From the IMG/VR virus record IMGVR_UViG_2778261646_000020: a DNA stretch of 15,581 bases. One strand, given 5' to 3'. Origin of the DNA: a virus. Lineage: Duplodnaviria > Heunggongvirae > Uroviricota > Caudoviricetes. Position 1 is the first letter of the stretch. Every line of letters starts with the position of its first letter. This document shows, piece by piece, positions 793 to 15,581 of the stretch. The notes below the pieces were generated by a model. It saw only the letters and a list, made by a program, of their open reading frames with translations, did not search any database and was not told where the DNA came from. The position numbers and the translations under genes are program-made.

Positions 793-809
793 TGCCCGGC
801 GTTATTTTA
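781..809 (+). terminator. Rho-independent terminator for the plus-strand gene
   Basis: Perfect 8-bp GC-rich inverted repeat cgccgggc (781-788) / gcccggcg (794-801) with 5-nt loop containing the TGA stop, followed by ttatttta (802-809). It lies between two convergent stop codons (790-792 and 807-809). Confidence 0.5.
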
Positions 810-1262
810 CGGCTGATATTGCCAGCTACTGACTAAAGCGTACAAGTGGTTTGGAGAATAGCGCCAGCTTTCCTTCAGTTGCAGAAATTCAGCACAAAAT
901 TCACTGCAAAACAGGCGATCGCGCTGTTCTTTATTACCGATAATAATTCCTAATGCTCCGCGCCAGTCATATTTTTTGCCATCATGTTTACGGAAAAAAG
1001 TTTCCACATCCTGAAGGCTGGCCTGGAGCGGCAGCATATCCCACTTATCCGCTGGCAACGGCATTATTTTTCCGCGTACACCGCGATCGCGCAGTGATGC
1101 GGAGTAACAAAGGTAACTCTTTTCACCATGCTTAATGGCTAATTCACAGTGGGAATAATGACCACGTGTGATTTTACGGGTAAGCCAGTCAGCCAGTCGG
1201 GCAATACCACGGTGCTCTGTTCGGCCCTTATAACAAGCGAGCCAGACAGTGGTTTTACTCAT
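807..1262 (-). CDS. Hypothetical cargo protein, 151 aa; possible permuted papain-like (NlpC/P60, YiiX/YaeF-type) hydrolase
   Basis: ATG at 1262-1260 overlaps the TGA of the upstream tail fibre assembly gene (ATGA overlap), stop TAA at 809-807. Conserved-looking Cys/His motifs (WLACYKG, HYSHCEL, FCSEFCAEF). Product assignment is weak and from memory. Confidence 0.5.
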   Translation of the reverse strand: MSKTTVWLACYKGRTEHRGIARLADWLTRKITRGHYSHCELAIKHGEKSYLCYSASLRDRGVRGKIMPLPADKWDMLPLQASLQDVETFFRKHDGKKYDWRGALGIIIGNKEQRDRLFCSEFCAEFLQLKESWRYSPNHLYALVSSWQYQP

Positions 1263-1966
1263 GGTTGCCAGCCTGTTGAATAATCGTAGTCGAGCACCGC
1301 CTGAATATCGTCCAGTGCTTCCACCGCCGCGATATGGTGCTGGGCGTTTGCGAACAAGCGCATATCGTGATCCATGGTGACCGATTCAAACTGGGCGGCG
1401 ATTTCGTTGGTTAACTCGATCAGACCATTATTTTTAGTTTTCCACATTAACCCTGGCGGAATTTTTTTCTCCGCTCCCATTTTGGTGAGTGAGAGCTGCT
1501 GGATACGGCTGCTTGTATCACTGTGGAAGTAATGGTTGTTGATGATGATGTAATCGGTTGTGATGGCATCGCGTTGATTTTTGATTGCAGAGTATTTCGC
1601 CTCTTTAGCATCGGTTATAGATGGTTGCCATTTTTCACCATCCCAACGTTCAAAAGAACCTGTCGGGGAAATGACTGTTACATTTTCAGGTAATTGGCCC
1701 AATTCTTGAATAATAAGCTGGCTACCATCAACTTTGTTATAAACAGTTTGGCCTCGATGATCTTCAATAAGTCTCCATGTTTCATTCTCCCACACTGGAG
1801 TAAAACCAGGAGCCTTTTCGGGAGGTGAAATTAATGTGCAATAATTTGGCAAGCCTGTATTAGGTGCAATGTATGCATCAGACTCACCGATATATTCTTG
1901 GGAGTCTTGTGAAAAATTATATACAGTTAGTATTTGAGCTTCATCAGAAAAGGTAAAAGTATTCAT
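1259..1966 (-). CDS. Tail fibre assembly chaperone (Tfa; P2 gpG / Mu U-like)
   Basis: 235 aa. ATG at 1966-1964 overlaps the tail fibre stop (ATGA). C-terminal region ([24 protein letters not shown]) resembles the conserved tail fibre assembly domain. Sits immediately downstream of the fibre gene. Confidence 0.8.
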
Positions 1967-3543
1967 GCTAGCCTCACAATATAGTTGAATGCGATATTTT
2001 TGACGGTGTTTTCGGTGCTGCCGGTATTATTAATGGTTAGGGAGTGGTTATGGGAACCAAGTGCAATTGAATGCGAATGGGTGCCGAGCGCAACAGTGTG
2101 CGAATGGGAACCAATTGTAACACTATGAACGTGTGATGGAACATTAATTGCCAAAGATGATCCGGTACCAGGGCCATATGATGTCCAGTCGCCTTGGCCC
2201 TCTGGTGAAGATGTCCCTGTTCTTACTGTTGCAGTTGCCGAGCCTGAGCCAGATGAACTTGTTGTTTTATTTCCATGGTTAAATGATGATGCAGTTTTAG
2301 TCCCCAAGTCTGTGAGGGGTGTGGTTTTCGTCCCTAAATCAGTACTCGAAATACTGCCCGTATGGTTATGTGATTTAACTCCATCCAGTTCAGTAGATAA
2401 TATAGCGCGCCCACTGGATGGTTTTCCTTTAATTATCCATCCGCGCATATCAGGAATAACACCAGATGGATATGCAATTGCCAGTTTGGGATAGGAGGTT
2501 TTATTAAATGTCTGACCTGTCATCAGAGCGTAGCCTGAAGGTACAGAATCAGATGGCCAGGGAATAGGCATCCCAACAGGACAGCTTTCCGCAGCAATAG
2601 CCTTATCCATCGCTGCCTTAACCGCGTTCGGCGTCGCAGCTTCCGTCGTACTGGTGCTGTTGGTCGCATTATTAAGTTTCACGACCCCTTTTTGTGTCAG
2701 CGTACCGTCGGGGATACCTGTTATTTGCCCCCAGGCATGGGTATGGCTGGACGGCGCCGCAGCAATAGCCTTGTCCATCGCTGCTTTAACCGCACTTGGC
2801 GTTGCAGCTTCCGTTGTACTGGTGCTATTTGTTGTGTTGTTAAGTTTAACGACTCCTTTCTGCGTCAGTGTACCGTCAGGGATACCAGTAATCTGATTCC
2901 AGGCATGAGTATGACTGGTTGCGGCTTTGCTATTTGCCAGGTCATATGCCGTTTTTACCGCTTTTGGCGTGGCTGCTTTAGTCTCATCATCGCTATTAGT
3001 TGCATTACTGAGCTGCGTAAAACCTTTTTGTGTCAGCGTCGCATCAGGATGATTTCGTGATTGCTGATGTGTTTTCAACGCGTCATCGACATATTCCCTG
3101 GTTGCCACAACGACTGAAGGGTCGATCAAAAGCGTCACCGCGTCTGCATTGGTGACTTCCATGACCGCGCGTATAACGATTTGCTTACTGGCCCCCGCAG
3201 GTAATCGTGGCTTATAGGTTTCCGGGAATTTACCAATAGCGACCAGCGTGCCGTCGGTATCCAGTAACCCAACTTCGCGTACATACCAGCCTCCGACTTG
3301 TTCGGGAATAATCGCTTCTGCGATAACCCAGGCCGGATTATCTGGCGCAATTTTTAATGTATTGAGCTGACCACGCCAGACCTCATGGACTACTTTGGTC
3401 TGACTTTCTGTCGGTTCGATATATTTACCATTACCGTCGCCAACTACCATAGTTTGCAGACGGATCTGTTTTTGCTCGGCCAGTGCTGAGGCAATTTTGG
3501 CTTTGCCTGCAGCAGTTAATATTGTAAAAAATTCACTTGCCAT
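1963..3543 (-). CDS. Tail fibre protein, mosaic (P2 gpH-like N-terminus, fibre repeats, collar domain, His-rich tip)
   Basis: Start taken at ATG 3543-3541 ([16 protein letters not shown]...), with GGAG 5 nt upstream; the longer ORF to 3666 has no start codon at that position. N-terminus resembles the baseplate-attachment domain of P2 H-type fibres. Internal ~55-aa tandem repeats ([25 protein letters not shown]...). Collar-like motif [20 protein letters not shown]...YPKL...[12 protein letters not shown]-terminal HxH repeats ([32 protein letters not shown]). Confidence 0.85.
2584..3042 (-). repeat. Tandem ~165-bp direct repeats (about 2.7 copies, diverging) inside the tail fibre gene
   Basis: Seen directly at DNA level: 2586-2750 and 2751-2915 align over most of their length, with a more divergent partial third copy to about 3042. 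Encodes the repeated fibre motif ATPxAVKxAxDxA...HTHAW. It also generates the spurious plus-strand ORFs 2654..2896 and 2692..3060. Confidence 0.8.
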
Positions 3544-3545
3544 TA

Positions 3546-4262
3546 TTACTCCGGATATACAGACATAATTTCGGTGCTCCAGTATCCTGTGCCGACCTTC
3601 ATCGGTTGGGATTGTGTAAGGCGATCGGGTTGATAAGGTAGTAGTTGGATATATTCCTCCACACAATAACCCGTCGCTAAAAATATTCCTGATGACTGGC
3701 TGAGGCTTTCTGCAACAGGAGGCAATACTGTAATGACTTCCCCTCCTTGCATGGCGCTGCCAATAACTGGTATTGGGCTTCGATTAATAAGCCAAATAAC
3801 AATGCTTTCCAGCTTTGAACGAACATTTTTATATTCATGAATTAATGTGATAAGTGCATTGAATTCATCTTCATTTAATCCTTTTTCCTCTAGTGTAATA
3901 TTTACCTTAAAAAAATAAGCCTTCCCCCCATATTCAAACCATTCTGAAATAGTTCCGGGTAAGGAAAGTATTTCCAGCACCCGCCGTACCGCCCAAATCG
4001 TTCCTTTATATTTATGCAGCTCAATGGCTTGCTTAATTAACTCGCGCTTCTCCCGCTCATCGGTGGTAAATAACCAACCTTCCAGCCCCTGAACGTGAAA
4101 TTGTTCTGCAAGGGCTGGTAATGCCGAAGCATCAACCAGGTCGACCAGATAAACCATCAACGCCGTCAGATCGAGTTGGGCAAAACGCTCGGCGGCGATG
4201 TTTGCCAGAATCGAAAAACGCTCATCGCTGGCAAGCGGCGGCGGTGGCAGCAATTTATCCAT
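3546..4262 (-). CDS. Baseplate protein, P2 gpI-like (tail protein I family)
   Basis: Start taken at ATG 4262-4260 ([16 protein letters not shown]...), which overlaps the gpJ-like stop by 8 nt; the track ORF begins at a TTG at 4277. Stop TAA 3548-3546, 2 nt before the fibre start. N-terminal LLPP motif and position between J-like and fibre genes match gpI. Confidence 0.75.
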
Positions 4263-5370
4263 CGCTGACTCCGGCAATCGTGACGTCTATTGCAGTGCAT
4301 TCCGCCCATTCATGCGCCTGCAAAATACGTTTTGTAGGCATATTCAGCGCAACGTCATAGACGCCATCGACCTGTAACACTTTGATTATCTGGTTTGGCA
4401 CAATGTCCTGCCCCAGATGTTTCTGCCGCTGTTGCGTCCAGAGGCTAATCGCTTTACGCGCCGCAGCCAGCGTTGTCTCCTGATCGGCGGTGGTAAACAG
4501 CGTTAGCTGAGCACGGATCTCATACGGCACTCGAAGAGCGCATTTCGCACTCACTTTGTCGGTTAGCGGTCGTTTTTTCTCCTTGCTAACCTCCTGTTCG
4601 ATTTGCGCGAGCAGTTCTATTCCTGGCAGTCCGTTCAGGGTTAGCGGGTAGATCTCCACGCAGCCTTCTGGCAATCCCTCGTCCGGCCCCAGTACTGCAA
4701 CGTCAATAATCGACTGGCTAACAGAAAGCGTATGAAAGCGGTATGCGCCATAGCTGCCCGCATTACTAAAGCTTTCTGGTGCCAGTTGGATACGCTGGCG
4801 CAATGCGTCATCGCTCTCTTCACCGCAGCCGCCCGTTGACGCAGTCAGGTTGGTTACGTTGATGTCATAATGACCAATCCTGTCGACCAGTGCGCTAATT
4901 TGTGCAGGCTGCCAGCCGTTGCCCTGTTCACCTGCTGCGAGGCTGGTGGCAGGAACGGCGATATGCAAACTCCTGGCCGGAAGCAGAACATCTTCATCGG
5001 TGGCGAACATCACGCTATCAGAGGCACTGGCCCGCGTCCCCTGGGGAATCAGGATATTGCTGGTATACGCACTGACGACCGAAAACTGCAACGTCGTTTT
5101 TGCCGGTTGTGCAGGCAAACGGTGAACGCCCACCAGCTCCCCTAAATAATCCAGCATTGGCGCGCGGGAATACGCGACCAGGTTCTGTTTCGCCGCTTCC
5201 TGAATGGCGATGCGTACAAGGTTTTCACGATAGGCAAACAGGTCGATGAGCAACCGCTCAGCCTGTGCCGGATAGAGTTTTTTACCGCTGGCATCTTCAT
5301 ATTGCGCAATCATCTCACTGGTAATTTGCGCAGGATCGCGGTCAATAAAATTGGGTTCGGCTATCGCCAT
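4255..5370 (-). CDS. Baseplate assembly protein, P2 gpJ-like (T4 gp6-like wedge)
   Basis: 371 aa. ATG 5370-5368 with strong GGAGG Shine-Dalgarno upstream. Size and position between W-like and I-like genes are typical of the Baseplate_J family. Confidence 0.8.
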   Translation of the reverse strand: MAIAEPNFIDRDPAQITSEMIAQYEDASGKKLYPAQAERLLIDLFAYRENLVRIAIQEAAKQNLVAYSRAPMLDYLGELVGVHRLPAQPAKTTLQFSVVSAYTSNILIPQGTRASASDSVMFATDEDVLLPARSLHIAVPATSLAAGEQGNGWQPAQISALVDRIGHYDINVTNLTASTGGCGEESDDALRQRIQLAPESFSNAGSYGAYRFHTLSVSQSIIDVAVLGPDEGLPEGCVEIYPLTLNGLPGIELLAQIEQEVSKEKKRPLTDKVSAKCALRVPYEIRAQLTLFTTADQETTLAAARKAISLWTQQRQKHLGQDIVPNQIIKVLQVDGVYDVALNMPTKRILQAHEWAECTAIDVTIAGVSDG

Positions 5371-5720
5371 AACACCTCCGTTGAGTTGATAACGCCGTCA
5401 GCGGCGCGCCATTGCACACGTAACGTCAGATGTTCACCGTCGATTACTGGTGTCACCTTCAGCAACCGACAGCGCGGTTCCCACTGGCGGATGGCTTCCA
5501 CCGACTCCCGTACCACATGCGGGATTGCCCGCTCGATGGGGTAATCGATGTAGTGCCACAAGTTGCTGCCAAACAGCGGTCTGTGAGGATCACTGCCGCG
5601 CGGTGTGCGCAGAATGATGTGTATCGCCTGGTGAATATCATCCAGCCCGCAGACGTATTCTTCAGGCCGCTGCAAGGCCGGTTGCCAGTGCAGCGTTGAG
5701 GGGCGTGTTTTTGTGTTCAT
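5361..5720 (-). CDS. Baseplate wedge protein, P2 gpW / T4 gp25-like
   Basis: 119 aa. ATG 5720-5718; 3' end overlaps the gpJ-like start by 10 nt. Size and position are typical of gpW/gp25 family proteins. Confidence 0.75.
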   Translation of the reverse strand: MNTKTRPSTLHWQPALQRPEEYVCGLDDIHQAIHIILRTPRGSDPHRPLFGSNLWHYIDYPIERAIPHVVRESVEAIRQWEPRCRLLKVTPVIDGEHLTLRVQWRAADGVINSTEVLWR

Positions 5721-5780
5721 GAGGGTATTTTCGCCCTGAACGGGCTGTGGAGATATTAAAGCGATTTAGAAAACTGATTG

Positions 5781-5813
5781 ATTAAAAAGAGAAAACCCGC
5801 CATCAGGCGGGTT
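5781..5813 (-). terminator. Intrinsic terminator-like hairpin between the V-like and W-like genes
   Basis: 8-bp stem aacccgcc (5794-5801) / ggcgggtt (5806-5813), 4-nt loop, starting 5 nt after the gpV-like stop. On the transcribed minus strand it is followed by TTCTCTTTTTAAT. Confidence 0.4.
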
Positions 5814-5818
5814 AAAAG

Positions 5819-6520
5819 TCAGTGTGAATGGTGGTTGGAGTTGCCACCGCTGTCCTGCAATGCGCCGCTGGCCTGAACGTTGCCGATCACGTTGACATTG
5901 CCGGTTATCGTGGCTGCGTTACCGATGCCTCCACTTCCTGCCATCCCGCCAAGCCAGGTGAGTTTTTTCATTACCGTGACGTTGCCAGTAAAGGTGCTCA
6001 TGGGCGCATCTACCGTCACTGCTGCTGCTTTAACCTCGACCTTAGTGGCGTCGATGCTGACATCGGTCGCTTTAACATCGACGGTATCGGAAGTCACGGT
6101 GACCTGTTGGGCTTTAATCTCAACGTTGGGCGATGTCAGGCAGGTACCGTTGATAACCTCAATCACGATTTTCTCGATACCGCCGTTGATCGTCAGCTGG
6201 TGCGTGCTGCGGTCATATTCAAACGCTGCGCCATCAGAAAACTGGACGTAACGTTTGTCGCGCGAGGCTACAGGCGCGGTGTCAACCGTAGAATAAACTG
6301 CGCCCAGCACCACGCCATCTTCACCGTTATTGTCCAGCAGAACTTCCACTTGCTCGCCCATATCCGGTAGCCAGTAGTCTTTATTGTCCTGGGAATTGCG
6401 TTGAAGTACCGCAAGCCAGTTGCTCTTCAGATTGTCACACTCCGGGAGCGTGACCCGCACCCGAACGCTGGTTTCGTCAATATCGCTGATAATCCCCGTT
6501 TGACGGGTTACTCCTTTCAT
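5819..6520 (-). CDS. Baseplate spike, P2 gpV-like (T4 gp5-like), with C-terminal beta-helix-like region and His-rich tip
   Basis: 233 aa. ATG 6520-6518 with GGAGGA 9 nt downstream of the gpD-like stop. C-terminal half is rich in V/T/G repeats (VTVTSDTVDVKATDVSIDATKVEVKAAAVTVDA) and ends ...SGGNSNHHSH. Confidence 0.75.
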   Translation of the reverse strand: MKGVTRQTGIISDIDETSVRVRVTLPECDNLKSNWLAVLQRNSQDNKDYWLPDMGEQVEVLLDNNGEDGVVLGAVYSTVDTAPVASRDKRYVQFSDGAAFEYDRSTHQLTINGGIEKIVIEVINGTCLTSPNVEIKAQQVTVTSDTVDVKATDVSIDATKVEVKAAAVTVDAPMSTFTGNVTVMKKLTWLGGMAGSGGIGNAATITGNVNVIGNVQASGALQDSGGNSNHHSH

Positions 6521-6529
6521 ATTTCCTCC

Positions 6530-7570
6530 TTACTGGCTGGTCGCTGGCCCGCGCGACACGTCGATTTCAGTGGTATAGCCGCTGCGCACAAAACTGTGAG
6601 TCGATTTATCAATTAGCCATTGACCGGAAAGCACGCCAAAATCGGTTAGCTCGATTTTATTGCCCGCCGTCAGTTCCGGGCAGCCCATCATTGTGAGCGT
6701 TCCGGTTTGCTGATATTCGTTGTGGCTGTCGAGTGCAGCGTTGGCTTTTGCCTGTGCTGCGCCAACGTCCGTCGCCCGACTGTTCAGTTTTAGCGTGTCG
6801 GCACTGGTGCCGACTCCACGGGCAGACGGTTTTTGCTGGCTGTCGTGGGTGTAGATAACCAGTTCTTTTTTCTTACTATTTTGATGCTGTACGGTGGCGT
6901 TTTTGTAGATACGGTTAATGGTATCTTTGAAGGTGAAATGCGAAACGTCTTTGCGGTCGATCTTTTTCACAGGTGCCAGGCAGCGCAGCGTGGGTAAATG
7001 TGAAAAAATCAGCTCTTTCGTCGTCACTTTTACGGCATAACCATATTCACTGGCCAGACGTTTGAGAAATCCAACATCGGTTTCGCCGTACTGTGTCACC
7101 CGGTCAATTGTCAGAGGCTCGATTTTGCCCACCAGCTTTAGGCCGTGAGTTTGTGCGATACGGCTGGCGATAGCCGAAAGCGTCGTTTCTTCAAAGCCCT
7201 GGCTGTTACGGGTGCGCAGCGCCTGATTGACGGAAGTGGCGATGCCATCAATATTTACCGTAGAAGGTGGCGCTGAAATATCAATTTTATCAATAATATA
7301 CTGACCACAATCGAGCAGCTTTTCTCCCTGATAACCCATATGCAGCGCCAGCGTATCGCCTTTGCCGGGATACCACTCTTTTATCCAGCGTCCATCTGTG
7401 TCATCCAGTGTAATTGCGATGGTATCCGACTCGTTTTTGATGCTGTCGTGGTAACTGATGCTGGTGACATAGGGTGTGATGTCATAAGTGATATCTTTAT
7501 GCCCATACCAGAGGGTAAAAATGGGCGTGAGTGTGGCAAAGACGCCACCAGTTACGCTTATCTCAGCCAT
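6530..7570 (-). CDS. Baseplate hub protein, P2 gpD / Mu P-like (late control D family; T4 gp27 / VgrG N-terminus-like)
   Basis: 346 aa. ATG 7570-7568 with GGAG upstream. Size and position between X-like and V-like genes fit the phage gpD family. Confidence 0.75.
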   Translation of the reverse strand: MAEISVTGGVFATLTPIFTLWYGHKDITYDITPYVTSISYHDSIKNESDTIAITLDDTDGRWIKEWYPGKGDTLALHMGYQGEKLLDCGQYIIDKIDISAPPSTVNIDGIATSVNQALRTRNSQGFEETTLSAIASRIAQTHGLKLVGKIEPLTIDRVTQYGETDVGFLKRLASEYGYAVKVTTKELIFSHLPTLRCLAPVKKIDRKDVSHFTFKDTINRIYKNATVQHQNSKKKELVIYTHDSQQKPSARGVGTSADTLKLNSRATDVGAAQAKANAALDSHNEYQQTGTLTMMGCPELTAGNKIELTDFGVLSGQWLIDKSTHSFVRSGYTTEIDVSRGPATSQ

Positions 7571-7770
7571 GGTGGGATCTCCGATAAGGTTTTATTAACG
7601 GAAATGACCGGAATAATGAGCTGAATACCGGAAGGCAGTACCGGGTAAATGGCTACATGTGGATTGGCGGCGATTATGCGTTCATAAGCCAGCGCATCAC
7701 CGTAGTAATGCCATGCCAGATTATCCCAGCGTTCGCCGTCGGTGGTGATATGTTCAAGGTATCGCATCAC
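7558..7770 (-). CDS. Tail protein X-like (small LysM-like tail/baseplate protein)
   Basis: 70 aa (69 aa if started at the ATG at 7767-7765 rather than the GTG at 7770-7768). Overlaps the upstream U-like stop and the downstream D-like start. Size and position match gpX. Confidence 0.65.
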   Translation of the reverse strand: MMRYLEHITTDGERWDNLAWHYYGDALAYERIIAANPHVAIYPVLPSGIQLIIPVISVNKTLSEIPPWLR

Positions 7771-8720
7771 CAGATCCTCGTAATGGTCGCGGCAGCAAGC
7801 TGGCTCACTGTGGGAGTGGTTTGTTGTACCGTTGTTCGTGCCTGATCAACCAACGTTGCGGCTTTATCAAACGTCGCTTCGGCGATGTCGCTGGTAATGT
7901 CGTCGAAAAGCGCCTGAGCATGGTCAACCAGTGTACTGGCGTCATTGGCGCAGTCCCGGATACCTGGCATGTTACCCAGTAAAGTTTTAATCTGCGCCGA
8001 CAACGCTTTTGGGAGTCCTGCCAGCGTTTGCAGATCCATTGGCTGTTTAAACAGGGTTTCGATGGCGTCGATTGTCTTTTTCAATGACGTAATTATCTTT
8101 TCACACTTTTCTTTTAACGCTTTGGCCTCTTTAATCATTGCTTTCACTTTTGCCACCGTTTTTTTAATATCTTCAATGGCTTGTGTCAGTTCATCCAGCA
8201 TCTCTTTGGCCTTACGCATACCTTCTTCGATGGCGTTTAATATCTGATCAAACCAGGACTCCACCTTGTCGGGAAAATCGCTCGCCTTTTCCTCGATGTT
8301 GGGCTCCTGGGTGGTAATCGCCGGAGGTAAAAGTGGATTTTTAGGATCGCCGGTGTACTCCTGGAGCGACATCGTTCCGTTTTGGGCAATCACATTGCCC
8401 CAGGGATCGGTGTGCTGGTGGGTGGCGGTTAGCTCCGTAATCACAAACCAGCCGCGATAATCGCCATTGCCAAATACCAGTGCCATCGCCTTGTGAGCAA
8501 GCATGGCTTCACGCAGTCGGTTCAGCTCTGTTGTGGGCTGGCAAAACTGGCTGTGCAGGGAAAATTCCAGCGCCAGCATATCCAGCTTATCGCCAATAAA
8601 CTGCACGCCGGGTTTGCCTTCTATACGGGCATGTGTGGCGTAATCCACGCCCATTGTGCTTTTAAAGCCGTCCCAGAATGTGACAACCTTCAATTCAATC
8701 TCTCCTAAAACGGCATACAT
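7767..8720 (-). CDS. gpU-like tail protein with ~170-aa C-terminal coiled-coil extension (occupies the position of Mu N, the DNA circularization protein)
   Basis: 317 aa. ATG 8720-8718 shares one base with the tape measure TGA. The N-terminal ~140 aa (MYAVLGEIELKVVTFWDG...GKPGVQFIGDKLDMLALEF...FGNGDYRGWFVITEL) resemble the gpU family. The C-terminal half is K/E-rich with heptad-like periodicity (EEGMRKAKEMLDELTQAIEDIKKTVAKVKAMIKEAKALKEKCEKIITSLKKTIDAIETL). Confidence 0.6.
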   Translation of the reverse strand: MYAVLGEIELKVVTFWDGFKSTMGVDYATHARIEGKPGVQFIGDKLDMLALEFSLHSQFCQPTTELNRLREAMLAHKAMALVFGNGDYRGWFVITELTATHQHTDPWGNVIAQNGTMSLQEYTGDPKNPLLPPAITTQEPNIEEKASDFPDKVESWFDQILNAIEEGMRKAKEMLDELTQAIEDIKKTVAKVKAMIKEAKALKEKCEKIITSLKKTIDAIETLFKQPMDLQTLAGLPKALSAQIKTLLGNMPGIRDCANDASTLVDHAQALFDDITSDIAEATFDKAATLVDQARTTVQQTTPTVSQLAAATITRIW

Positions 8721-11095
8721 CAGGCATACCCCCGGCGCTGTTGTTGCGCCATTACGTCGTTAATCATTCTTTCCAGTTCGCGTTTACTCATCGTCAACAC
8801 GTTCTGAATCTCTTTAGTGGTGTTTTGTCCGTTTCCCTGCACGGTAATCTGTGGCGAAAAATTTACCTGGACTTTTCCTGAGGAACGGGAGGGTAGCGTC
8901 GCCGGTTTGGTTACGGATTTACCAGGTAAAGAGGCAGATACGGGTTTGGCGGCTGTATTTTTTGCCGCTGGCGCCGATGACGGCGTAGCCGTTTTGCCGG
9001 ATGGCGCGAGTTGTTTGCCCACCGGCGGCGTTAAAATCGCACCGGCAACGCCTGGAACAACGGTCGCGGGGGAGACGGATGCGGTATTAGTCGTGCTTGT
9101 AATAGCTGTAGCCGATCCTTCTGTACTAATACCCATCGTGGTTTTTAGCCAGTCTGGGATGGCGTTTTTTACCTGATCAATAATGCCTTTCAGAGCGGGG
9201 AAGGCATTCATTATGCCGTCAACCAGACTGCCCAGAAGATTGCTGCCGAACTCGCTAAAACTTGCAGGCATCTCGACACCAAACCAATTCATCACACTGG
9301 AAAAGGCGCTATAGAACAACTCCAGCGGTGACCAGTCGAGAATCAACCGACAAATTCCTGCAATGCCGCCGTCAAAGGCCGTGGTGATACGTTGCCAGAT
9401 GGTCGAAAAGAACCTGGAGATAGGCTCCCAGTTGCGACAAATCAGATAAGCAGCGCCCGCAATCGCAGTGATGACCAGACCAATGGGATTCATCAATAAA
9501 ACCCTACCCAACCAGAAGACGGTCTGACCTACCTGTTTCAGTGCGCCAATCAGGCCATGACCAAGCAGTTGCATTAGCCATTTTGCGCTGCCACCCAATG
9601 ACTTAACCGCTGATAGCATCTTACTTGCCCCGCCTGTGAGCGCCAGACTTGCCTTGACTTTCAGGAAGATATCGACCAGACGAATAAACGGCGAGGTGAT
9701 GAGGTTCGCGCCCAGCTTTAAAACATTCAGCGCGCCGTTAAACAGCCAAACCGCCCCGACGATTTTCGCAATGTTTTGCACCAGCGCCGGATGTTCGCGT
9801 AGCCAGGCGCTGAACTGGCGAATAACCGGCGTAAGGCTTTGTGCCAGCTCGCCAATCGCCGGCATAAGCTGCAAACCAATGCTGAGCCATAAATCATTTA
9901 ATGCCAGCTGTAACGCTTTAGTCTGTTCAATGGGCGAGGCCATTTGCGCAGAAAAGTCAGCGTTAATCAGATTCTTGCTGGTGGCTTGCATGGCAGAGGC
10001 TTTTAACTGGCGATATTCCTCCATATTCGCCAGCATAGGTGCCAGGAATTCCACCGTTTGCGCATCGCCGAACATTTCGCCCAGATTAAATTGCGTTACC
10101 ATCAATTGCAGCGCATTGCTGCGAGCAGATAAATCTTCAATCTGCATAGTGCGTTTGAAGGTGTCGAGGATCGCCGGATTCATCTTCTCAAGCTGCATTT
10201 GTACGATATGAGTCATGGCTTCGCTAACACCCATACCGTTTTGCTGATGTTCAAGCAGAGAGCCTTGCAGATCGACGCCCTGGCTGGCGAACCAGCTATC
10301 GGTTTTTTTCGAAAAGGTGGTTTGCAGAAAGTGGTCGAAATTCTCCGCCGCCGCACTGGCGCTGGCCCCGTTTTTCATGGCGATCTGCATGGTGGCGCTC
10401 AGTTCAGCCATACCTTCCAGACCCTGAGCGCCGGTTTTACCTGCAAATTTCTCTATCCACTGCGTTTGTTCAGCAATGACAGGCCCACCGCTTTTGCTAA
10501 TGCCGTACATCATGTTTTGCGCGGCGTGGAAATTTTCCGGGGCAATATTCAGTCGATCATGGGTTGCGAGCGCGGCATTCGCCCATGTTTCAGCACTTTC
10601 GCGCGTGGCGGTGGCAGCTTTGGCGATCTCCGGCATATAACGGTTGAGATCCTGTATCGACGACAAATTGCCTTCGATCAGCGTTTGGGCTGCGTTCTGT
10701 AAGGTGGTCTGCTGCTGGTTAAAATCCATGCTCCAGTCGCGCAGATTAAGGCTGAGCGTCTCGCGGGTTGTAGCATTCATCCCACCTTTGGTCGCCATAT
10801 TGACCATGTTGTCCTGAAACTCATACGGCAACTTCCAGTCGGGGGCTTCAACATTGAATACTTTGCTAAATTGCCCGGCAAATGTTTGGGTTTTCTCCAT
10901 CAGATTAGCGCGGCTGCGGCTATTTTCCTCCAGGCGGAGAGCGGAATCGGCAAGCTGCTGCGTTAGTTTGATAACTGTCGCCTGCTGAGTAGAGAGAGTT
11001 AACAATGTTCTGGCGTTGAGTGAGCCGTAACGGGCTATTGCCTGCGTCAACGTCTCATTACGCGCCTGAAGCTGGGTAATAATATCGTTGGCCAA
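8720..11095 (-). CDS. Tail tape measure protein
   Basis: 791 aa, the largest ORF, located between chaperone and baseplate genes. Alpha-helical N-terminus, central hydrophobic/Gly-rich segments, Pro/Ser/Thr-rich C-terminus. The annotated start is a TTG at 11095-11093, with an in-frame TAA 4 codons upstream and no ATG or GTG in between, so the exact start is uncertain. Confidence 0.85.
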   Translation of the reverse strand: MANDIITQLQARNETLTQAIARYGSLNARTLLTLSTQQATVIKLTQQLADSALRLEENSRSRANLMEKTQTFAGQFSKVFNVEAPDWKLPYEFQDNMVNMATKGGMNATTRETLSLNLRDWSMDFNQQQTTLQNAAQTLIEGNLSSIQDLNRYMPEIAKAATATRESAETWANAALATHDRLNIAPENFHAAQNMMYGISKSGGPVIAEQTQWIEKFAGKTGAQGLEGMAELSATMQIAMKNGASASAAAENFDHFLQTTFSKKTDSWFASQGVDLQGSLLEHQQNGMGVSEAMTHIVQMQLEKMNPAILDTFKRTMQIEDLSARSNALQLMVTQFNLGEMFGDAQTVEFLAPMLANMEEYRQLKASAMQATSKNLINADFSAQMASPIEQTKALQLALNDLWLSIGLQLMPAIGELAQSLTPVIRQFSAWLREHPALVQNIAKIVGAVWLFNGALNVLKLGANLITSPFIRLVDIFLKVKASLALTGGASKMLSAVKSLGGSAKWLMQLLGHGLIGALKQVGQTVFWLGRVLLMNPIGLVITAIAGAAYLICRNWEPISRFFSTIWQRITTAFDGGIAGICRLILDWSPLELFYSAFSSVMNWFGVEMPASFSEFGSNLLGSLVDGIMNAFPALKGIIDQVKNAIPDWLKTTMGISTEGSATAITSTTNTASVSPATVVPGVAGAILTPPVGKQLAPSGKTATPSSAPAAKNTAAKPVSASLPGKSVTKPATLPSRSSGKVQVNFSPQITVQGNGQNTTKEIQNVLTMSKRELERMINDVMAQQQRRGYA

Positions 11096-11185
11096 AATTG
11101 TTTCTCTTTAAATATTGATAATGGCCCGCTGGTTATTTTTCTAAAAAAAGGGGCAGGGAAGAAATAAACCTGACGGGCTTGGGAA

Positions 11186-11210
11186 ACTCGCAGACATCAG
11201 GTCTGCGAGT
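11186..11210 (-). other. Perfect 10-bp stem-loop between chaperone region and tape measure gene
   Basis: actcgcagac (11186-11195) / gtctgcgagt (11201-11210) with 5-nt loop atcag. Contains the stop codon of the alternate-frame chaperone extension. Not followed by a clear U-tract on the transcribed strand. Confidence 0.5.
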
Positions 11211-11284
11211 CATATTCGATTTTTATTTGGGCGCTGGCTTCATCCAGCCAGTTGCTAAAGTCATCGACGGTAAGGGCGTCTATC

Positions 11285-11602
11285 TCACTGGGTGGAAAGC
11301 GAAACCATCTCGCCAGTAACGCCATCGCTTGCCATAACAGTGGCGGATTCTGTAGCCACGCTAAGCATGGATTGAAATCGTTTCTGCAATGCCTGGTAAT
11401 CCAGCAAATCCATTTCAGCTAAATCTTCTGGCACCAGTCCGGTCATTGCCGCCATTAGCGGTTCATCCCACTCTTCAGGTTTTTCGCTGATCCGGCGCGC
11501 GTTGCGCATATCTTTTACTTTCAGGCGACGTAATTGCAGAGTGTTAATTACGTCTCCCGCCGCTGAAGTAAACGGGAACTGTAAGATATAATGTTCTTTC
11601 AT
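11285..11602 (-). CDS. Tail assembly chaperone, P2 gpE-like
   Basis: 105 aa. ATG 11602-11600 with AAGGA upstream. Motif GLVPEDLAEMDLLDYQALQKRF resembles the conserved core of gpE-family tail assembly proteins. Located between tube and tape measure genes. Confidence 0.75.
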   Translation of the reverse strand: MKEHYILQFPFTSAAGDVINTLQLRRLKVKDMRNARRISEKPEEWDEPLMAAMTGLVPEDLAEMDLLDYQALQKRFQSMLSVATESATVMASDGVTGEMVSLSTQ

Positions 11603-11628
11603 TTTGTGTCCTTATTTATTTTGCAAAG

Positions 11629-11648
11629 TTCGGGGCCGTAGCCCCGAA
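11629..11648 (-). other. GC-rich hairpin between tube and chaperone genes
   Basis: 8-bp stem ttcggggc (11629-11636) / gccccgaa (11641-11648), loop cgta. No U-tract follows on the transcribed strand, so it is not called a terminator. Confidence 0.4.
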
Positions 11649-11652
11649 TAAC

Positions 11653-12177
11653 TTAGCCACCGATGTTATTGCGATAGGTACTTAATTGATCCACACCATT
11701 AACCCGGAAAATATTGGCCATATAATCAAGTTCAAGCAGCGTTTCACCATCAACTACTTGTTTAATATAAGTGCAACCAAAGGCGCTGCTGAATTCCGGG
11801 TTTTCATTCTGTTTAAATGTGCCCAGTGGATTCTTTTTAAACATCACGGTTAAATGTGTCACTAGCGCTAATTGATTCGCTTTCCCCTGGGAGTTATAGC
11901 AATCAATACTGGAGCGGCACTGTAATGCAACCGCCTGCCACGGGTTTGCCGTTTTACGCATTACGTCCTGATAGAAGGAGTTCCATTTAATTTCGCCCTC
12001 CAGTTTATCGAAACCCGCCGGGAGTTCGATTTTACCCACCATGCCCAGTGCTTTATGCTCCTGCATAATTAAACTGACATCCGGCAATTTAATTTCGGTT
12101 GCACGACCTAAAAGGTTATTACCATCGAGATAAATATTGGCGTTGGTAATACGGTTAATTTGAATTTTTCCAGCCAT
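11653..12177 (-). CDS. Tail tube protein (P2 FII / Mu M-like)
   Basis: 174 aa. ATG 12177-12175 shares one base with the sheath stop. Size and position immediately downstream of the sheath gene; N-terminus MAGKIQINRITNANIYLDGNNLLG is typical of contractile-tail tube proteins. Confidence 0.85.
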   Translation of the reverse strand: MAGKIQINRITNANIYLDGNNLLGRATEIKLPDVSLIMQEHKALGMVGKIELPAGFDKLEGEIKWNSFYQDVMRKTANPWQAVALQCRSSIDCYNSQGKANQLALVTHLTVMFKKNPLGTFKQNENPEFSSAFGCTYIKQVVDGETLLELDYMANIFRVNGVDQLSTYRNNIGG

Positions 12178-13579
12178 TAGCTATTGCTCTCCAGAGAGAC
12201 TAAATATTCAGAAGTAATTTCAGTTTCAAACGTCAGACGTTCCAGCGGCGGCGGCGGGGTGAATTTATAGCTCAGCAATAAATGCCCAGCGCTGAGTTCA
12301 GTCGGTGAATTTCGCGCCGGATCGTACCAGCATTCAAAGCCAAGCAGTGCGCCGTCGGCAATCAGCTTACGGCCCCAGGTATTTACCGATTCGGTCAGGG
12401 CATCAATCAGCGCCTGATTAATCGGCATATCAATATACTGCTGACTGAAATAACGGATTGACTCATTAATTACATCGCCTGTCCGGCGGACGTTTTCAAA
12501 GTTACGCATATGGGTCACGGTAGGCCACGCTGCAGTGCGGTTGCCCCACAAGCGCAGACCAGAGCCGTAACTATTGAAAATAGTGGTAATGCCGTTTTCG
12601 TTTAGCTGATTCACTTCGCTTTGTGGATCATCAATCATTGCGGAAAGCGAACGTTCAATACCGGTAATACCCTGAATTTCTTGGTTTGAGTTGCTCCACC
12701 AGAAACCTTTTTCGAGGTCTACTTTGGCACGTAGCCCGGCAGCGCGCGAAGAGAGCGGTTCGAGAACTTCTTGGTTAGTGATGCCATCGTAAACTTTGAC
12801 GTGTGGGTAACATAAACGCGCACGATCAGAGCTGGTGTTGAAGTTGATAGCCCCTTGCGAACCGCGTCCTGCCAATACCTGCTGGAATGTCGTCCCAATC
12901 GGGGCATCAATGTAGGTAATCGCACCAAGTTTTTCCGCTTGTGCAATCAGCTCTGTAGTTACTGATTTTTGCGTACAGAACACGGGAGCAAGCAGGATTT
13001 TGGCGTAGAAACCATACAGGTTATAGGTGTCCTGTAGCAGTTTCATCCCCGTGCGATCGCCTGCGGTATTAACGGCACCGATAATATCGGCTGCGGTGAC
13101 CTTTGTAGGGTCGCACCAGGAGGAATGTCGGCTCCTGTACGGGTAATTATGCCTGTTTGTTCATCTACGCTAAATGCTGCGGTGTTATAGGTTGATGAAT
13201 TTGATGAAGAGGGCTTTAGAACCACGTTACGCACATTGCGGTGAGTGAGTTTCGCCTGGTTGTTAGCATCAAAAGTGATACTTTCATTGCTGATGTTGGA
13301 GCCATGTTTTGCCGGATCCAGCACGTTAATCACCACCACCGTACCGGCACCGTGGTCATAAATCGCCTTCAGTGCCTGTGGGATCGTAAAGTTAGTCTGA
13401 GTCGAACCAAACTGCGCAGCATCGCTTTCAGAAAGGCATAATGTTGGTTTATTTACCGGACCACAGGGGGCCGTACCGATTAAAGCGATGACGGCGGATT
13501 TTACCGCTTTAACCGGACGCGGGCCGGTTTCAATTTCAATGGTTTCTACACCGTGCAGATAATTAGCTGCCATGTACAA
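12177..13579 (-). pseudogene. Tail sheath gene interrupted by a frameshift (two ORF fragments 13043..13579 and 12177..13046)
   Basis: N-terminal fragment (MYMAANYLHGVETIEIETGPRPVKAVKSAVIALIG...) matches the sheath N-terminus. The downstream frame, read upstream of its first Met, gives ...KVTAADIIGAVNTAGDRTGMKLLQDTYNLYGFY..., which continues the sheath. The two frames meet near 13105-13125, consistent with a 1-nt deletion (or 2-nt insertion) relative to an intact gene. Confidence 0.75.
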
Positions 13580-13760
13580 TTTCCTCTCCGTTATTTTGTT
13601 CTTCCTGAGTGATGACAGGAGTCAGATGATTGCGGGCAATCATGGTCATGACCCACTCGTTGTCTTCTGGCAGATCAATTTCACTGTTCGGCCACAATAA
13701 GATTTCTTGTCCGTCGGCAAGGGTGACGCCGCTTGCCGGGCCGTTGTAGATGTATTTCAT
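13563..13760 (-). CDS. Small conserved tail-module protein, 65 aa (position of Mu gp38; function unknown)
   Basis: ATG 13760-13758 overlaps the upstream stop (ATGA); 3' end overlaps the sheath start. Assignment is by position and size only. Confidence 0.5.
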   Translation of the reverse strand: MKYIYNGPASGVTLADGQEILLWPNSEIDLPEDNEWVMTMIARNHLTPVITQEEQNNGEEIVHGS

Positions 13761-14212
13761 TCAGTTTCCTCGTAATTAACTTCAGTAAGCAGGGTAAGGT
13801 CCGTGCTTTCCCGTTTCGCGATAAACAGCGAGCTGGTCGCCATTTCCAGGATGTAGCGGCAGAAACCGCCGCTCTCACCTGTATTAATTTCTTTTTCAAG
13901 CCAAAGCAGACGATCGCAATCAGGAAGCTGAAGGCCACCCAATGCGCTGCGTATGTGATCAAGTGCGTTTAACGCGTCACAATTTTTGCCAACAATAACG
14001 GTGGCGGTTAAGCGAAGTATTTGCTGTTGCACGATGGCATCACTGCTTTCGGGCGTGGTAAAGACAGAACCGCTATAATTAACAATCACCGCAACTTGTT
14101 GTGTCTGTGGAATATATTTCTGGGCATCCGTAGATGAAATAAATACGTCCATTTCGGGGTTGTGCTCACGTAATCTTGTCACGACACAATTCATTACAGA
14201 TAAAATTTCCAT
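13757..14212 (-). CDS. Putative tail completion / sheath-proximal protein, 151 aa (position of Mu gp37 or P2 R/S)
   Basis: ATG 14212-14210 with AAGG upstream. First gene after the terminator and intergenic region, translationally coupled to the next gene. Assignment is by position and size. Confidence 0.45.
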   Translation of the reverse strand: MEILSVMNCVVTRLREHNPEMDVFISSTDAQKYIPQTQQVAVIVNYSGSVFTTPESSDAIVQQQILRLTATVIVGKNCDALNALDHIRSALGGLQLPDCDRLLWLEKEINTGESGGFCRYILEMATSSLFIAKRESTDLTLLTEVNYEETE

Positions 14213-14261
14213 ATAGGCTGTACCTTAATTACCGCTCACTTCGTTATCGTTGAGATATATT

Positions 14262-14281
14262 CTGAAGCAGTGAAGGTGAAG
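14262..14281 (-). promoter_or_regulatory. Three closely spaced TGAAG repeats (CTTCA on the transcribed strand) in the lysis-tail intergenic region; candidate regulator site or late promoter region
   Basis: Plus strand TGAAGcagTGAAGgTGAAG at 14263-14281, lying between the terminator hairpin (14328-14354) and the first tail gene start (14212). No convincing sigma-70 -35/-10 pair was found. Confidence 0.3.
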
Positions 14282-14320
14282 AATCTTTTAATGTGATTTA
14301 GAGAAAAAATTGAATGGCTA

Positions 14321-14354
14321 TAAAAAATCCCCACACTTACGTAAAGGTGGGGAT
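14321..14354 (-). terminator. Rho-independent terminator after the lysis-like cassette
   Basis: 7-bp stem tccccac (14328-14334) / gtgggga (14348-14354) with a loop containing the palindrome ttacgtaa, beginning 4 nt after the stop at 14361-14359. On the transcribed strand it is followed by TTTTTTA (14327-14321). Confidence 0.6.
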
Positions 14355-14358
14355 GTAT

Positions 14359-14673
14359 TTAATAACTGCCACGTTGTAATAGCTCGATTTTGCTATATAA
14401 GGCATCCAGCTTTGCTTCTAATACTGCTTGCCCACGAAGATAATCTTCTCTGCGGACATAATGCAGCGGAAGCTCGGCACGAAATTCAAGAAACTCTCTT
14501 TCCAGTTTCGACCAACTTGTTTCTGATTCCCTGCGGGCATTTTCCAGAGACTCAAAACGCTCATTAAGTCGTTTTTCAATTTGTGCTAACAGCAGTTTTC
14601 CGGCAGCAAACATTAATCCAACGAAGGAAAGCATAAGGGAGATCACTTCCCAAAAATCGATACTGAGTTTCAT
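14359..14673 (-). CDS. Membrane-anchored coiled-coil protein, 104 aa; i-spanin-like
   Basis: ATG 14673-14671 with GAGGGG upstream, 12 nt after the transglycosylase stop. N-terminal hydrophobic segment (VISLMLSFVGLMFAAGKLLLA) followed by a charged helical region (EKRLNERFESLENARRESE...). Confidence 0.55.
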   Translation of the reverse strand: MKLSIDFWEVISLMLSFVGLMFAAGKLLLAQIEKRLNERFESLENARRESETSWSKLEREFLEFRAELPLHYVRREDYLRGQAVLEAKLDALYSKIELLQRGSY

Positions 14674-14685
14674 CGGCCCCTCTGA

Positions 14686-15291
14686 TTAATGAAGACAGCT
14701 TGCCTGTCCCCAGAGTAAATAGCGGGCGGCATGTTGATAGAGGATCATCTTTGGATAGCGACGATTTTCTCGCCAGTTCGTGGCGCTGCGCCCGGCGTTG
14801 ACTTGCTCAACATGACCAAACCAGCTAGTGGCATCTAACCCTTTGGATGCAGCCAGTTTTTTATCCCGGTTAACCCACCCCTGACCGCCGTTATAGGCGC
14901 TTAGGGTAAACGCCATACGCTGACAATCATTTTTCGCAGAGATGTTTTTCCACAAATGCTGGTCATATTGCACCAGCGCGCGAATCGCCCAGGTTGGGTT
15001 ATACGGTTTGTTTTCACGCAATTGTGGATACAACTGGCTTATCCATGTCGCTGTAGCAGGCATAAATTGCGCCATACCTTGTGCGCCAACGGGGGAACGT
15101 ACCATTGGCTGCCAGGCGGACTCCTGGTGTAATTGCCCGGCAAAGTCGGCCACTGGAGCATTCAGCCCCCAGACTTCTCGAGCTGTACGAATTAGTTCGT
15201 TTCGCCATGCCAGAGAGGCTCGCGGCGGTTCAGAGGCGTTAAGCGGGAAAAGAACGAAAATAATCATAGACGCGATATATTTCAGCCACAT
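14686..15291 (-). CDS. SLT-domain lytic transglycosylase with N-terminal signal peptide (endolysin-like)
   Basis: Start taken at ATG 15291-15289 (MWLKYIASMIIFVLFPLNA...), 2 nt after the upstream stop; the longer ORF from 15369 overlaps the upstream gene. Contains a catalytic-type Glu-Ser (LHQESAWQP) and the AQGMAQFMPATA motif characteristic of the soluble lytic transglycosylase fold. Confidence 0.8.
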   Translation of the reverse strand: MWLKYIASMIIFVLFPLNASEPPRASLAWRNELIRTAREVWGLNAPVADFAGQLHQESAWQPMVRSPVGAQGMAQFMPATATWISQLYPQLRENKPYNPTWAIRALVQYDQHLWKNISAKNDCQRMAFTLSAYNGGQGWVNRDKKLAASKGLDATSWFGHVEQVNAGRSATNWRENRRYPKMILYQHAARYLLWGQASCLH

Positions 15292-15293
15292 CA

Positions 15294-15581
15294 CTATAGC
15301 CCTAAGGCGACGGAAAGACAGACGGCGGCAACGATGATGGCGCGGCGAATCATTGCCGCCGCGCAGCAACGAGGTTCCTTCCAGGGGCTAAAAGAGTCAG
15401 GCCGTGCCCAGGGGAACAAACTGCGATCGAGCCAGTATCCCAGCACCGCGGAAAGCGAAACCAGGCTTAGTTTATAAATGACGACCGGGATCTGTGCGGA
15501 AGAGGTCCAGCCGATCACGACAAACAGCGCGGCGGAATCGACTAGCCAGCCGGAAAGCCGGGGAAAAGTGACTTTTTTCAT
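15294..15581 (-). CDS. Small membrane protein, 95 aa; possible holin
   Basis: ATG is the last three bases of the window (15581-15579), so the start is at the edge and a longer N-terminus cannot be excluded. Two to three hydrophobic segments; lies immediately upstream of, and is translationally coupled to, the lytic transglycosylase. The hydrophobic C-terminus is atypical for classical holins. Confidence 0.4.
   Translation of the reverse strand: MKKVTFPRLSGWLVDSAALFVVIGWTSSAQIPVVIYKLSLVSLSAVLGYWLDRSLFPWARPDSFSPWKEPRCCAAAMIRRAIIVAAVCLSVALGL

Follow-up and report, generated by a model that had tools for sequence, protein, structure and literature searches.

A chromosomal tail and lysis cluster without head genes

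The subject of this analysis is a 15,581-nt stretch of DNA, the IMG/VR virus record IMGVR_UViG_2778261646_000020, which we refer to at its full length as the window, and in it a cluster of tail and lysis genes that extends from position 807 to 15581 and is encoded on the minus strand throughout. The cluster, hereafter the element, begins with a holin gene, an SLT endolysin gene and the gene of a small membrane protein, which are followed by a terminator and a contractile-tail set of the BcepMu/P2 type; a fibre gene, a fibre chaperone gene and the gene of a 151-aa protein close the operon at its 3' end. Gene identities were assigned by Pfam and phrog profile searches of the open reading frames (ORFs) of the window, and the features are compiled in Table 1. 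These searches confirm a statement of the first-pass annotation of this DNA, according to which all genes from the holin to the fibre chaperone serve the tail or lysis and none encodes a head protein. Sheath, tube, chaperones, tape measure, hub and spike, baseplate wedge, fibre and fibre chaperone are all represented, as in a complete contractile tail, and the tail ORFs are intact in the E. coli strains IAI39, MS6198 and PD23 and in the other genera that, as described below, carry the element next to lysC.

The window is a piece of E. coli chromosome that matches strains IAI39, CE10 and N32 save for four substitutions and one 28-bp gap. It holds most of an element whose complete length is about 16.5 kb, the operator and the mor gene being located just beyond position 15581, beside lysC. 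In IAI39, the 17 kb to the left are ordinary chromosome (metH through rluF-yjbD, a slipin gene and the RlaP gene), and to the right of the holin gene lie an insertion sequence (IS) of the ISL3 family (ISEc53, with a ClbS/DfsB passenger), the gene of the Mor-family activator (mor) and lysC-pgi-yjbEFGH. No capsid, portal, terminase, integrase, transposase or repressor gene was found within 17 kb on either side in this strain. Head genes directly past position 15581, which the first-pass annotation had named as the observation that would speak against a tailocin, are absent, and the IS, mor and lysC are found there instead in IAI39, CE10 and N32. MS6198 and PD23 have the same order with no IS, the holin gene being followed by a 537-nt spacer, mor and, 55 nt further, lysC. 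With a 2.8-kb probe reaching from gp37 into lysC, 5426 complete E. coli genomes were examined; gp37, the lysis genes, mor and lysC are contiguous in 197 of them, and the sheath segment was found in 196, which indicates that essentially all carriers are headless beside lysC.

On the left, about 1440 E. coli genomes that have no tail genes match the window in positions 1 to 811 only, with matches that end at 807 to 811. This places the boundary of the element at about 807 and bears out the earlier view that a convergent, unrelated gene and its terminator mark the end of the element here. The slipin (SPFH) and RlaP genes form a two-gene island between yjbD and lysC, which about 30% of E. coli possess irrespective of the tail cluster; in strains with no cluster, this pair is followed by a zeta-toxin-family gene and then by lysC. 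A PADLOC search gave no match for the slipin, the RlaP nucleotidyltransferase or the zeta-toxin-family gene.

The lysis and tail operons are separated by 146 nt between the gene of the gp25-like protein and gp37, close to the earlier estimate of 150 nt, and this gap opens with the hairpin and U-run of the terminator that had been proposed to lie there. The terminator was missed by a simple terminator scan and was established by reading and folding the sequence; its hairpin is present in five of the six lysC-linked genera. These 146 nt are all that the element has at the place where BcepMu-type phages carry their head genes, between gp25 and gp37. The Gp37-family protein, the counterpart of Mu K, is encoded by the first gene retained past the head-module deletion, and its Salmonella orthologue, STM4215, is the protein of PDB entry 2GJV. 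This protein is regarded as being of the tail-terminator type and equivalent to Mu K, in which case the deletion would end at the boundary between the head and tail modules.

Table 1. Features of the window, listed from left to right, with the evidence on which each was assigned (aa, amino acids; dG, folding free energy).
Feature	Position	Strand	Evidence
RlaP-family nucleotidyltransferase gene, outside the element	1..792	+	PF10127, E 6e-96; convergent
Terminator of the RlaP gene, marking the left boundary	780-802	+	
Last gene of the element, 151-aa Cys/His hydrolase	807..1262	-	YiiX-like permuted NlpC/P60 fold
Tail fibre assembly chaperone	1259..1966	-	Caudo_TAP and DUF4376; phrog_1807, phrog_105
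Tail fibre	1963..3543	-	PF12571, PF03406, PF07484
Baseplate wedge I	3546-4262	-	PF09684
Baseplate wedge J	4255-5370	-	PF04865
Baseplate wedge W	5361-5720	-	PF04965
Second promoter-like block, before W	5740..5813 including the terminator	-	CTAAATCGCTTTAATATC at 5752-5769, then GAAAATA
Internal terminator between V and W	5794-5813	-	
Baseplate spike V	5819..6520	-	PF04717
gpD hub	6530-7570	-	PF05954
gpX	7558-7767	-	PF05489
gpU-like protein	7767-8720	-	PF06995
Tape measure protein, 791 aa	8720..11095	-	PF10145
E' extension, -1 frame overlapping E	11197-11325	-	ORF in alternative frame
Tail assembly chaperone E	11285-11602	-	PF10109
Tail tube protein	11653..12177	-	PF04985, E 4e-56; 69% identity to BcepMu gp40
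Tail sheath gene, disrupted	12177..13573	-	two ORFs, 13043-13579 and 12177-13046
gp38-like protein, 65 aa	13563..13760	-	phrog_895; 46% identity to BcepMu gp38
Gp37-family protein	13757..14212	-	PF09646, E 7e-34; E 1e-54 to PDB 2GJV; collinear with BcepMu gp37
Candidate Mor-dependent late promoter before gp37	14270..14310	-	CTAAATCACATTAAAAG (motif 14285-14301), about 22 nt, GAATAT -10-like element
Intrinsic terminator ending the lysis operon	14321..14354	-	hairpin CCCCACC..GTGGGG and U-run; dG -15.5 kcal/mol, z -4.1
gp25-like protein, 104 aa	14359..14673	-	phrog_462; 46% identity to BcepMu gp25
SLT lytic transglycosylase endolysin, 201 aa	14686..15291	-	PF01464, E 1e-14; phrog_669; 55% identity to BcepMu gp22
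Holin, 95 aa	15294..15581	-	PF13272 Holin_2-3, E 2e-26; phrog_1528; 61% identity to BcepMu gp21

Relationship to Bcepmuvirus

The closest complete phages belong to Bcepmuvirus: the sheath shares 74% identity with those of Escherichia phage PhiKM and Klebsiella phage KP12, and 71% with that of BcepMu. Mor, the holin, the SLT endolysin, gp25 and gp37 to gp51 of these phages (BcepMu, PhiKM) have homologous and collinear counterparts in the element, among them gp38, the tube, E/E', T, U, X, D, V, W, J and I. What the element lacks, in comparison with BcepMu, is the early region gp02 to gp20 (GemA, transposase A/B, repressor), Rz/Rz1, and gp26 to gp36 (terminase, portal, F, G, protease/scaffold, capsid, gp35, gp36 and the Mu J equivalent). 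In tblastn searches of the six lysC-linked loci, the BcepMu head and early proteins had no match, the DDE transposase A, the transposition protein B and the repressor included. The spacer between holin and mor measures merely 537 to 660 nt in these loci, and the two genes are divergent, as expected if the early region between them was deleted. The element also differs from Bcepmuvirus in occupying one fixed chromosomal site, whereas these phages transpose to random sites, and in carrying the fibre chaperone and YiiX-like genes at its end.

Judged by gene order, the ancestor is of the BcepMu type, which combines a Mu-like order of genes with P2-like tail proteins; it is not the P2-type layout considered in the first-pass annotation. 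Two other identities were considered and rejected. A Bcepmuvirus prophage would have a transposase, a repressor and head genes, all of which were tested for and are absent. An extracellular contractile injection system of the Afp/PVC type was dismissed because the genes are arranged as in a P2/BcepMu phage tail with a fibre, and none of the ORFs matches a Pfam family of an AAA+ ATPase, an Afp-type tail-length terminator or a toxin payload.

Other headless derivatives of BcepMu-type phages exist, with different deletion end-points. A Lelliottia locus (L006) has kept transposase A/B and the repressor and yet shares the gp25-gp37 junction; Lonsdalea loci (L018, L020, L023) have kept the transposase, Rz and gp26; and in Chromobacterium (L041-L046, L049, L058, L060, L075) and Rivihabitans (L062) Mor is located directly upstream of gp37. 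Loss of the head from BcepMu-type tails may have occurred more than once.

Conservation of the locus across genera

To place the E. coli locus among its relatives, one genome per species was scanned, and the 74 loci obtained were classified by tblastn with BcepMu and E. coli proteins. Most of them are full prophages with heads. Salmonella, a Dryocola species, Phytobacter massiliensis and two Superficieibacter species share the layout seen in E. coli (lysC, mor, holin-SLT-gp25, gp37-gp38-sheath). In all six lysC-linked genera, a homologous hairpin lies in the mor-lysC spacer, which points to one ancestral arrangement and not to several insertions of a phage that transposes at random. Since the same deletions and the same junction are found in all these lineages, their divergence accrued in the headless state.

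From mor to I, nearly every gene aligns over its full length across the lysC-linked genera, and no gene has a stop codon, the lineage of the window excepted. The ratio of nonsynonymous to synonymous divergence (dN/dS, or omega) lies between 0.074 and 0.106 in all 15 genus pairs (2268 aligned codons), and synonymous divergence (dS) of the element, which ranges from 0.65 to 1.64 between genera, is similar to that of lysC and tracks it (r = 0.77). Gene by gene, the comparison of E. coli with Salmonella gives an omega of 0.04 to 0.13 for most genes, where neighbouring core genes have 0.03 to 0.07. Within E. coli (IAI39 versus MS6198), dS is 0.058 for the element and 0.055 for its flanks, with an overall omega of 0.10. 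Low omega over a divergence that took place without heads indicates that purifying selection has acted on a headless unit made up of the tail, lysis and mor genes; such selection, as estimated from these alignments, argues against an inert remnant.

The Salmonella orthologue is Def4 of S. Typhimurium LT2 (STM4196/4198-STM4219), which lies between yjbD and lysC with the same gene order, the same LexA box and the same mor-lysC junction as in E. coli. Nucleotide identity is about 78%, and amino acid identity is 65 to 97% for nearly all genes and about 59% for Gp37. Def4 differs in its fibre tip, in its left flank and in having gtrABC between V and W, which the E. coli element does not have. This O-antigen glucosylation operon (STM4204-4206) is placed between the stop codon of V and the promoter-like block before W, at a spot that corresponds to positions ~5770-5819 of the window, where E. 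coli has only a terminator. It might provide self-protection against the particles of the element itself. In the open-access literature searched, Def4 is described only as a defective prophage and never as a tailocin.

The fibre is the most divergent gene within E. coli, with an omega of 0.35 between IAI39 and MS6198. Its product starts with a collar-fibre domain at the N-terminus, continues with three fibre repeats and a collar domain, and ends in a tip of HxH repeats. At least two alleles occur in E. coli, of 526 aa (IAI39) and 536 aa (MS6198, PD23), with 88% amino acid identity. The Salmonella fibre gene STM4200 serves as a Typhimurium-specific PCR target (PMC6201931), a use that is consistent with a variable receptor-binding tip.

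LexA box and candidate promoters

In each of the six lysC-linked genera, the alignment places a near-consensus LexA box between holin and mor, with the sequence TACTGTATATGTATACAGTA in E. coli MS6198 and AACTGTATATATATACAGTA in Salmonella. Directly after it stands a conserved GTGTAAAATG, which is plausibly the -10 element of a promoter reading towards mor. The whole window is devoid of the pattern CTGT-N8-ACAG, and searches of BcepMu and of the variants in Lonsdalea and Chromobacterium did not find it either. One match each is present in PhiKM and in the Lelliottia locus, positioned elsewhere and deviating from the LexA consensus; thus, in contrast to the element with its LexA operator, no such core was found at a comparable position in BcepMu, PhiKM or the other variants checked.

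Upstream of both gp37 and W, a repeated unit is present in the six genera, composed of a terminator hairpin, the motif CTAAATC[AG]C[AT]TTAA, about 20 nt, and an AAAATA or GAATA element. A conserved 24-nt block is also found 65 to 90 nt upstream of the holin gene. From their position and conservation, these blocks are putative Mor-dependent late promoters. A single late-promoter consensus that would include the region upstream of holin was rejected, the spacing of the 24-nt block being unlike that of the gp37 and W units. The A-rich -10-like element of W stands at a distance of only about 8 nt from the ATG. As no Shine-Dalgarno sequence can be seen there, the W transcript may be nearly leaderless.

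A predicted SOS-linked circuit is therefore present, at the level of sequence only. As for expression, published work on Salmonella has STM4213 induced by indole and STM4217 upregulated in a dps mutant, which are weak hints of activity under stress.

Lysis genes

The holin gene is the first of the lysis operon, and its start codon coincides with the end of the window. The endolysin has a hydrophobic, signal-like N-terminus (MWLKYIASMIIFVLFPLNA). The third product, the gp25-like protein, has a single predicted N-terminal transmembrane (TM) helix and a coiled coil, and no Pfam family matches it. From its sequence similarity, it is a homologue of BcepMu gp25 and not a spanin. It has been kept although the spanins were lost, and it is among the best conserved genes, with 90% amino acid identity between E. 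coli and Salmonella and an omega of 0.05.

A protein of Mu that is also named gp25, the "releasin" (DUF2730), has an N-terminal TM domain and is encoded directly 3' of a membrane-tethered endolysin (PMC9239132). The gp25-like protein shares with it the gene position, the size and the predicted N-terminal TM topology. An identification with the releasin was rejected, since there was no match to Pfam DUF2730 even at an E value of 10, no BLASTP alignment to Mu gp25, and an hhalign probability of 0.4%; the resemblance appears to be a positional analogy only.

The probably inactive copy in the window

The split of the sheath gene into two ORFs was overlooked in the first-pass annotation. It is caused by a 28-bp deletion at ~13110/13111, between 11-bp direct repeats (TCGCACCAGGA), which was recognised by comparison with IAI39 and all other best matches. 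The reading frame shifts after about residue 153, so that the 474-aa sheath, intact in IAI39, is represented here by an N-terminal product of 176 aa and, as an ORF of its own, a C-terminal part of 289 aa. An exact-protein look-up returned the identical 176-aa product on at least six contigs from independent assemblies, and the allele is thus real and not a one-off assembly error. On one contig that carries the deletion (GCA_002513485.1), the sequence ends within ISEc53, 437 nt upstream of the holin gene. When complete E. coli genomes were searched with a 161-nt junction query, the best-ranked matches listed all had no 28-bp deletion.

The lineage of the window also has the ISEc53 insertion of the IAI39 type, which lies in the centre of the LexA box with the target duplication ATGTACAT. 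In an unrelated carrier, isolate 648, ISKox3 (ISL3) is inserted in the same box centre in the opposite orientation, with the duplication ATATGTAT. The operator is uninterrupted in 185 of the 196 carriers, and ISL3 insertions occur in about 11 of them. Two ISL3 insertions in one operator could reflect a target preference for an AT-rich palindrome, or selection that silences a self-lytic module. With the sheath frameshift and an IS within the LexA box of its lineage, the copy in the window is probably non-functional, and the most fitting view is that an element which is maintained elsewhere has recently been inactivated here.

Interpretation

Our preferred reading, in which we have moderate confidence, is that a tailocin-like element of the R type has been domesticated here and placed under the control of a LexA-to-Mor cascade. 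In the proposed course of events, a BcepMu-type transposable myovirus would have lost its early region, the Rz/Rz1 spanins and gp26 to gp36, and would have retained mor, the operon of holin, secreted SLT endolysin and gp25-like protein, the tail operon from gp37 to the fibre chaperone, and the gene of the YiiX-like hydrolase. From the gene content, the missing genes, the locus, its conservation, the selection on it and the operator, we infer how induction, particle formation and killing would proceed in intact copies. DNA damage would lead to cleavage of LexA and to derepression of a promoter that overlaps the LexA box upstream of mor, and Mor would then activate late promoters devoid of a -35 element before holin, gp37 and W. 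Contractile tails free of DNA would assemble, and the holin and endolysin would lyse the producer and release them. By means of the variable fibre, the particles would attach to related enterobacteria, whose envelope they would then puncture, killing them as R-type tailocins do.

The stronger claim is more tentative, and we would give it a little under an even chance: that the intact lysC-linked copies, Def4 of many Salmonella included, are a functional native R-type tailocin of Enterobacteriaceae, whose tail was captured before the genera diverged, lost the accompanying head, transposition and repressor genes and was rewired from phage-repressor to LexA-to-Mor control, and in which fibre variation, together with gtrABC in Salmonella, would set the killing range and self-protection.

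The known R-type tailocins (the R2 pyocin of P. aeruginosa, Rp4 of P. syringae and BceTMilo of Burkholderia) are likewise chromosomal and headless, with lysis genes of their own and a variable fibre. Their control is tied to DNA damage, which the element would share through its predicted LexA box. R pyocins are controlled by the PrtN/PrtR circuit, in place of which the element has a Mor-family activator directly behind the LexA box. The characterised R-type tailocins also descend from ancestors other than the BcepMu type. Rp4, with a Mu/SfV-like ancestry, is an independent domestication of a myovirus tail, and its lysis cassette has spanin genes (PMC4684702), whereas none were detected in the element. 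In E. coli, an "ST131-specific tailocin" with a contractile tail related to R2 pyocin has been proposed (Tantoso et al. 2022, PMC9205054); it is a full, intact P2-like prophage with all phage parts, and thus a different element in a different place. In the open-access full-text literature, we found no description of the present locus as a tailocin.

Several observations weigh against our reading. Of the complete E. coli genomes, only about 3.6% have kept the element, which is thus often lost. A tblastn search with BcepMu proteins found no Rz/Rz1 homologue in the six lysC-linked loci, nor is there a small lipobox ORF on the tail strand of the window, and with no spanin detected efficient release is not guaranteed. 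In the window itself, the sheath is a pseudogene, and the ORFs are not all intact. The dS values between genera are near saturation, and both the promoter served by the LexA box and the action of Mor on the late promoters are read from position and conservation. The open-access literature searched contains no report of particles, induction or killing for the locus. Some of these points (the rarity among E. coli genomes and the lost spanins), together with the listing of the Salmonella locus as defective prophage Def4 and with real lesions (the sheath deletion, seen in several assemblies, and the ISL3 insertions in the operator), would suit an inert, slowly decaying prophage whose genes are intact from too little time or through recombination with active phages. 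We nevertheless regard such a remnant as unlikely. The shared deletions and lysC junction in six genera imply that the divergence happened without heads, and over a dS of 0.65 to 1.6 nearly all ORFs have remained full-length and stop-free with an omega of about 0.08 to 0.10, where neutral decay would give an omega near 1 and many frameshifts. The nearest complete phages, being only 71 to 74% identical in the sheath, make a recent refreshment improbable, and the conserved host LexA operator was not found in the related phages checked.

Domestication for a role other than killing is, in our judgement, slightly less probable still; such a role could be controlled autolysis (for the release of DNA, vesicles or public goods), the carriage of cargo (gtrABC, the YiiX-like hydrolase) or the donation of tails to a phage or satellite. 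The presence of gtrABC within the Salmonella cluster, the conserved non-structural hydrolase gene that closes the operon, and the conservation of mor and the lysis genes, among the highest in the element, all fit this explanation. However, the structural tail genes are all under purifying selection, those of the sheath, tube, baseplate and tape measure among them, and not just the lysis or cargo genes; gtr is missing from E. coli and the other genera; the fibre evolves fastest, as expected of a receptor-binding weapon or of its target range; and no head-only partner element was seen. The remaining explanation is that the window is the tail half of a complete prophage of the Mu/P2 type with its head genes outside, the second of two alternatives offered by the first-pass annotation. 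Taken alone, the window would be compatible with it, and complete BcepMu-like prophages with a sheath about 74% identical do occur in E. coli (PhiKM), and yet we give this explanation next to no weight, and it is refuted for every sequenced relative examined: genomes that are nearly 100% identical have the IS, mor and lysC past position 15581 and RlaP, slipin and yjbD past position 1; the contig of the sheath-deletion lineage ends in the same IS; the stretch from gp37 to lysC is contiguous in 197 carriers; and the gp25-gp37 gap, where BcepMu-type phages have their head genes, measures 146 nt. While the genomic context removes this alternative, the other one, a tailocin, is favoured by the architecture, the locus in six genera, the purifying selection and the LexA box.

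Salmonella phages have been engineered into tailocins (PMC10670071), and the R2 pyocin of Pseudomonas has been retargeted to E. coli and Klebsiella (PMC11762384); of native tailocins of E. coli or Salmonella, we found none in the open-access literature that had been characterised by experiment. For the window, our results describe a well-bounded headless tail cluster with a broken sheath gene. If particles are made by the intact copies, the element would offer a contractile weapon that is ready for use, can be induced by the SOS response and comes with a series of natural fibre alleles, and the Salmonella Def4 locus, hitherto treated as junk, would gain a function. It would then also be a clean case of long-term prophage domestication, in which the same deletions and junction, an omega near 0.1 and an acquired host operator are found together.

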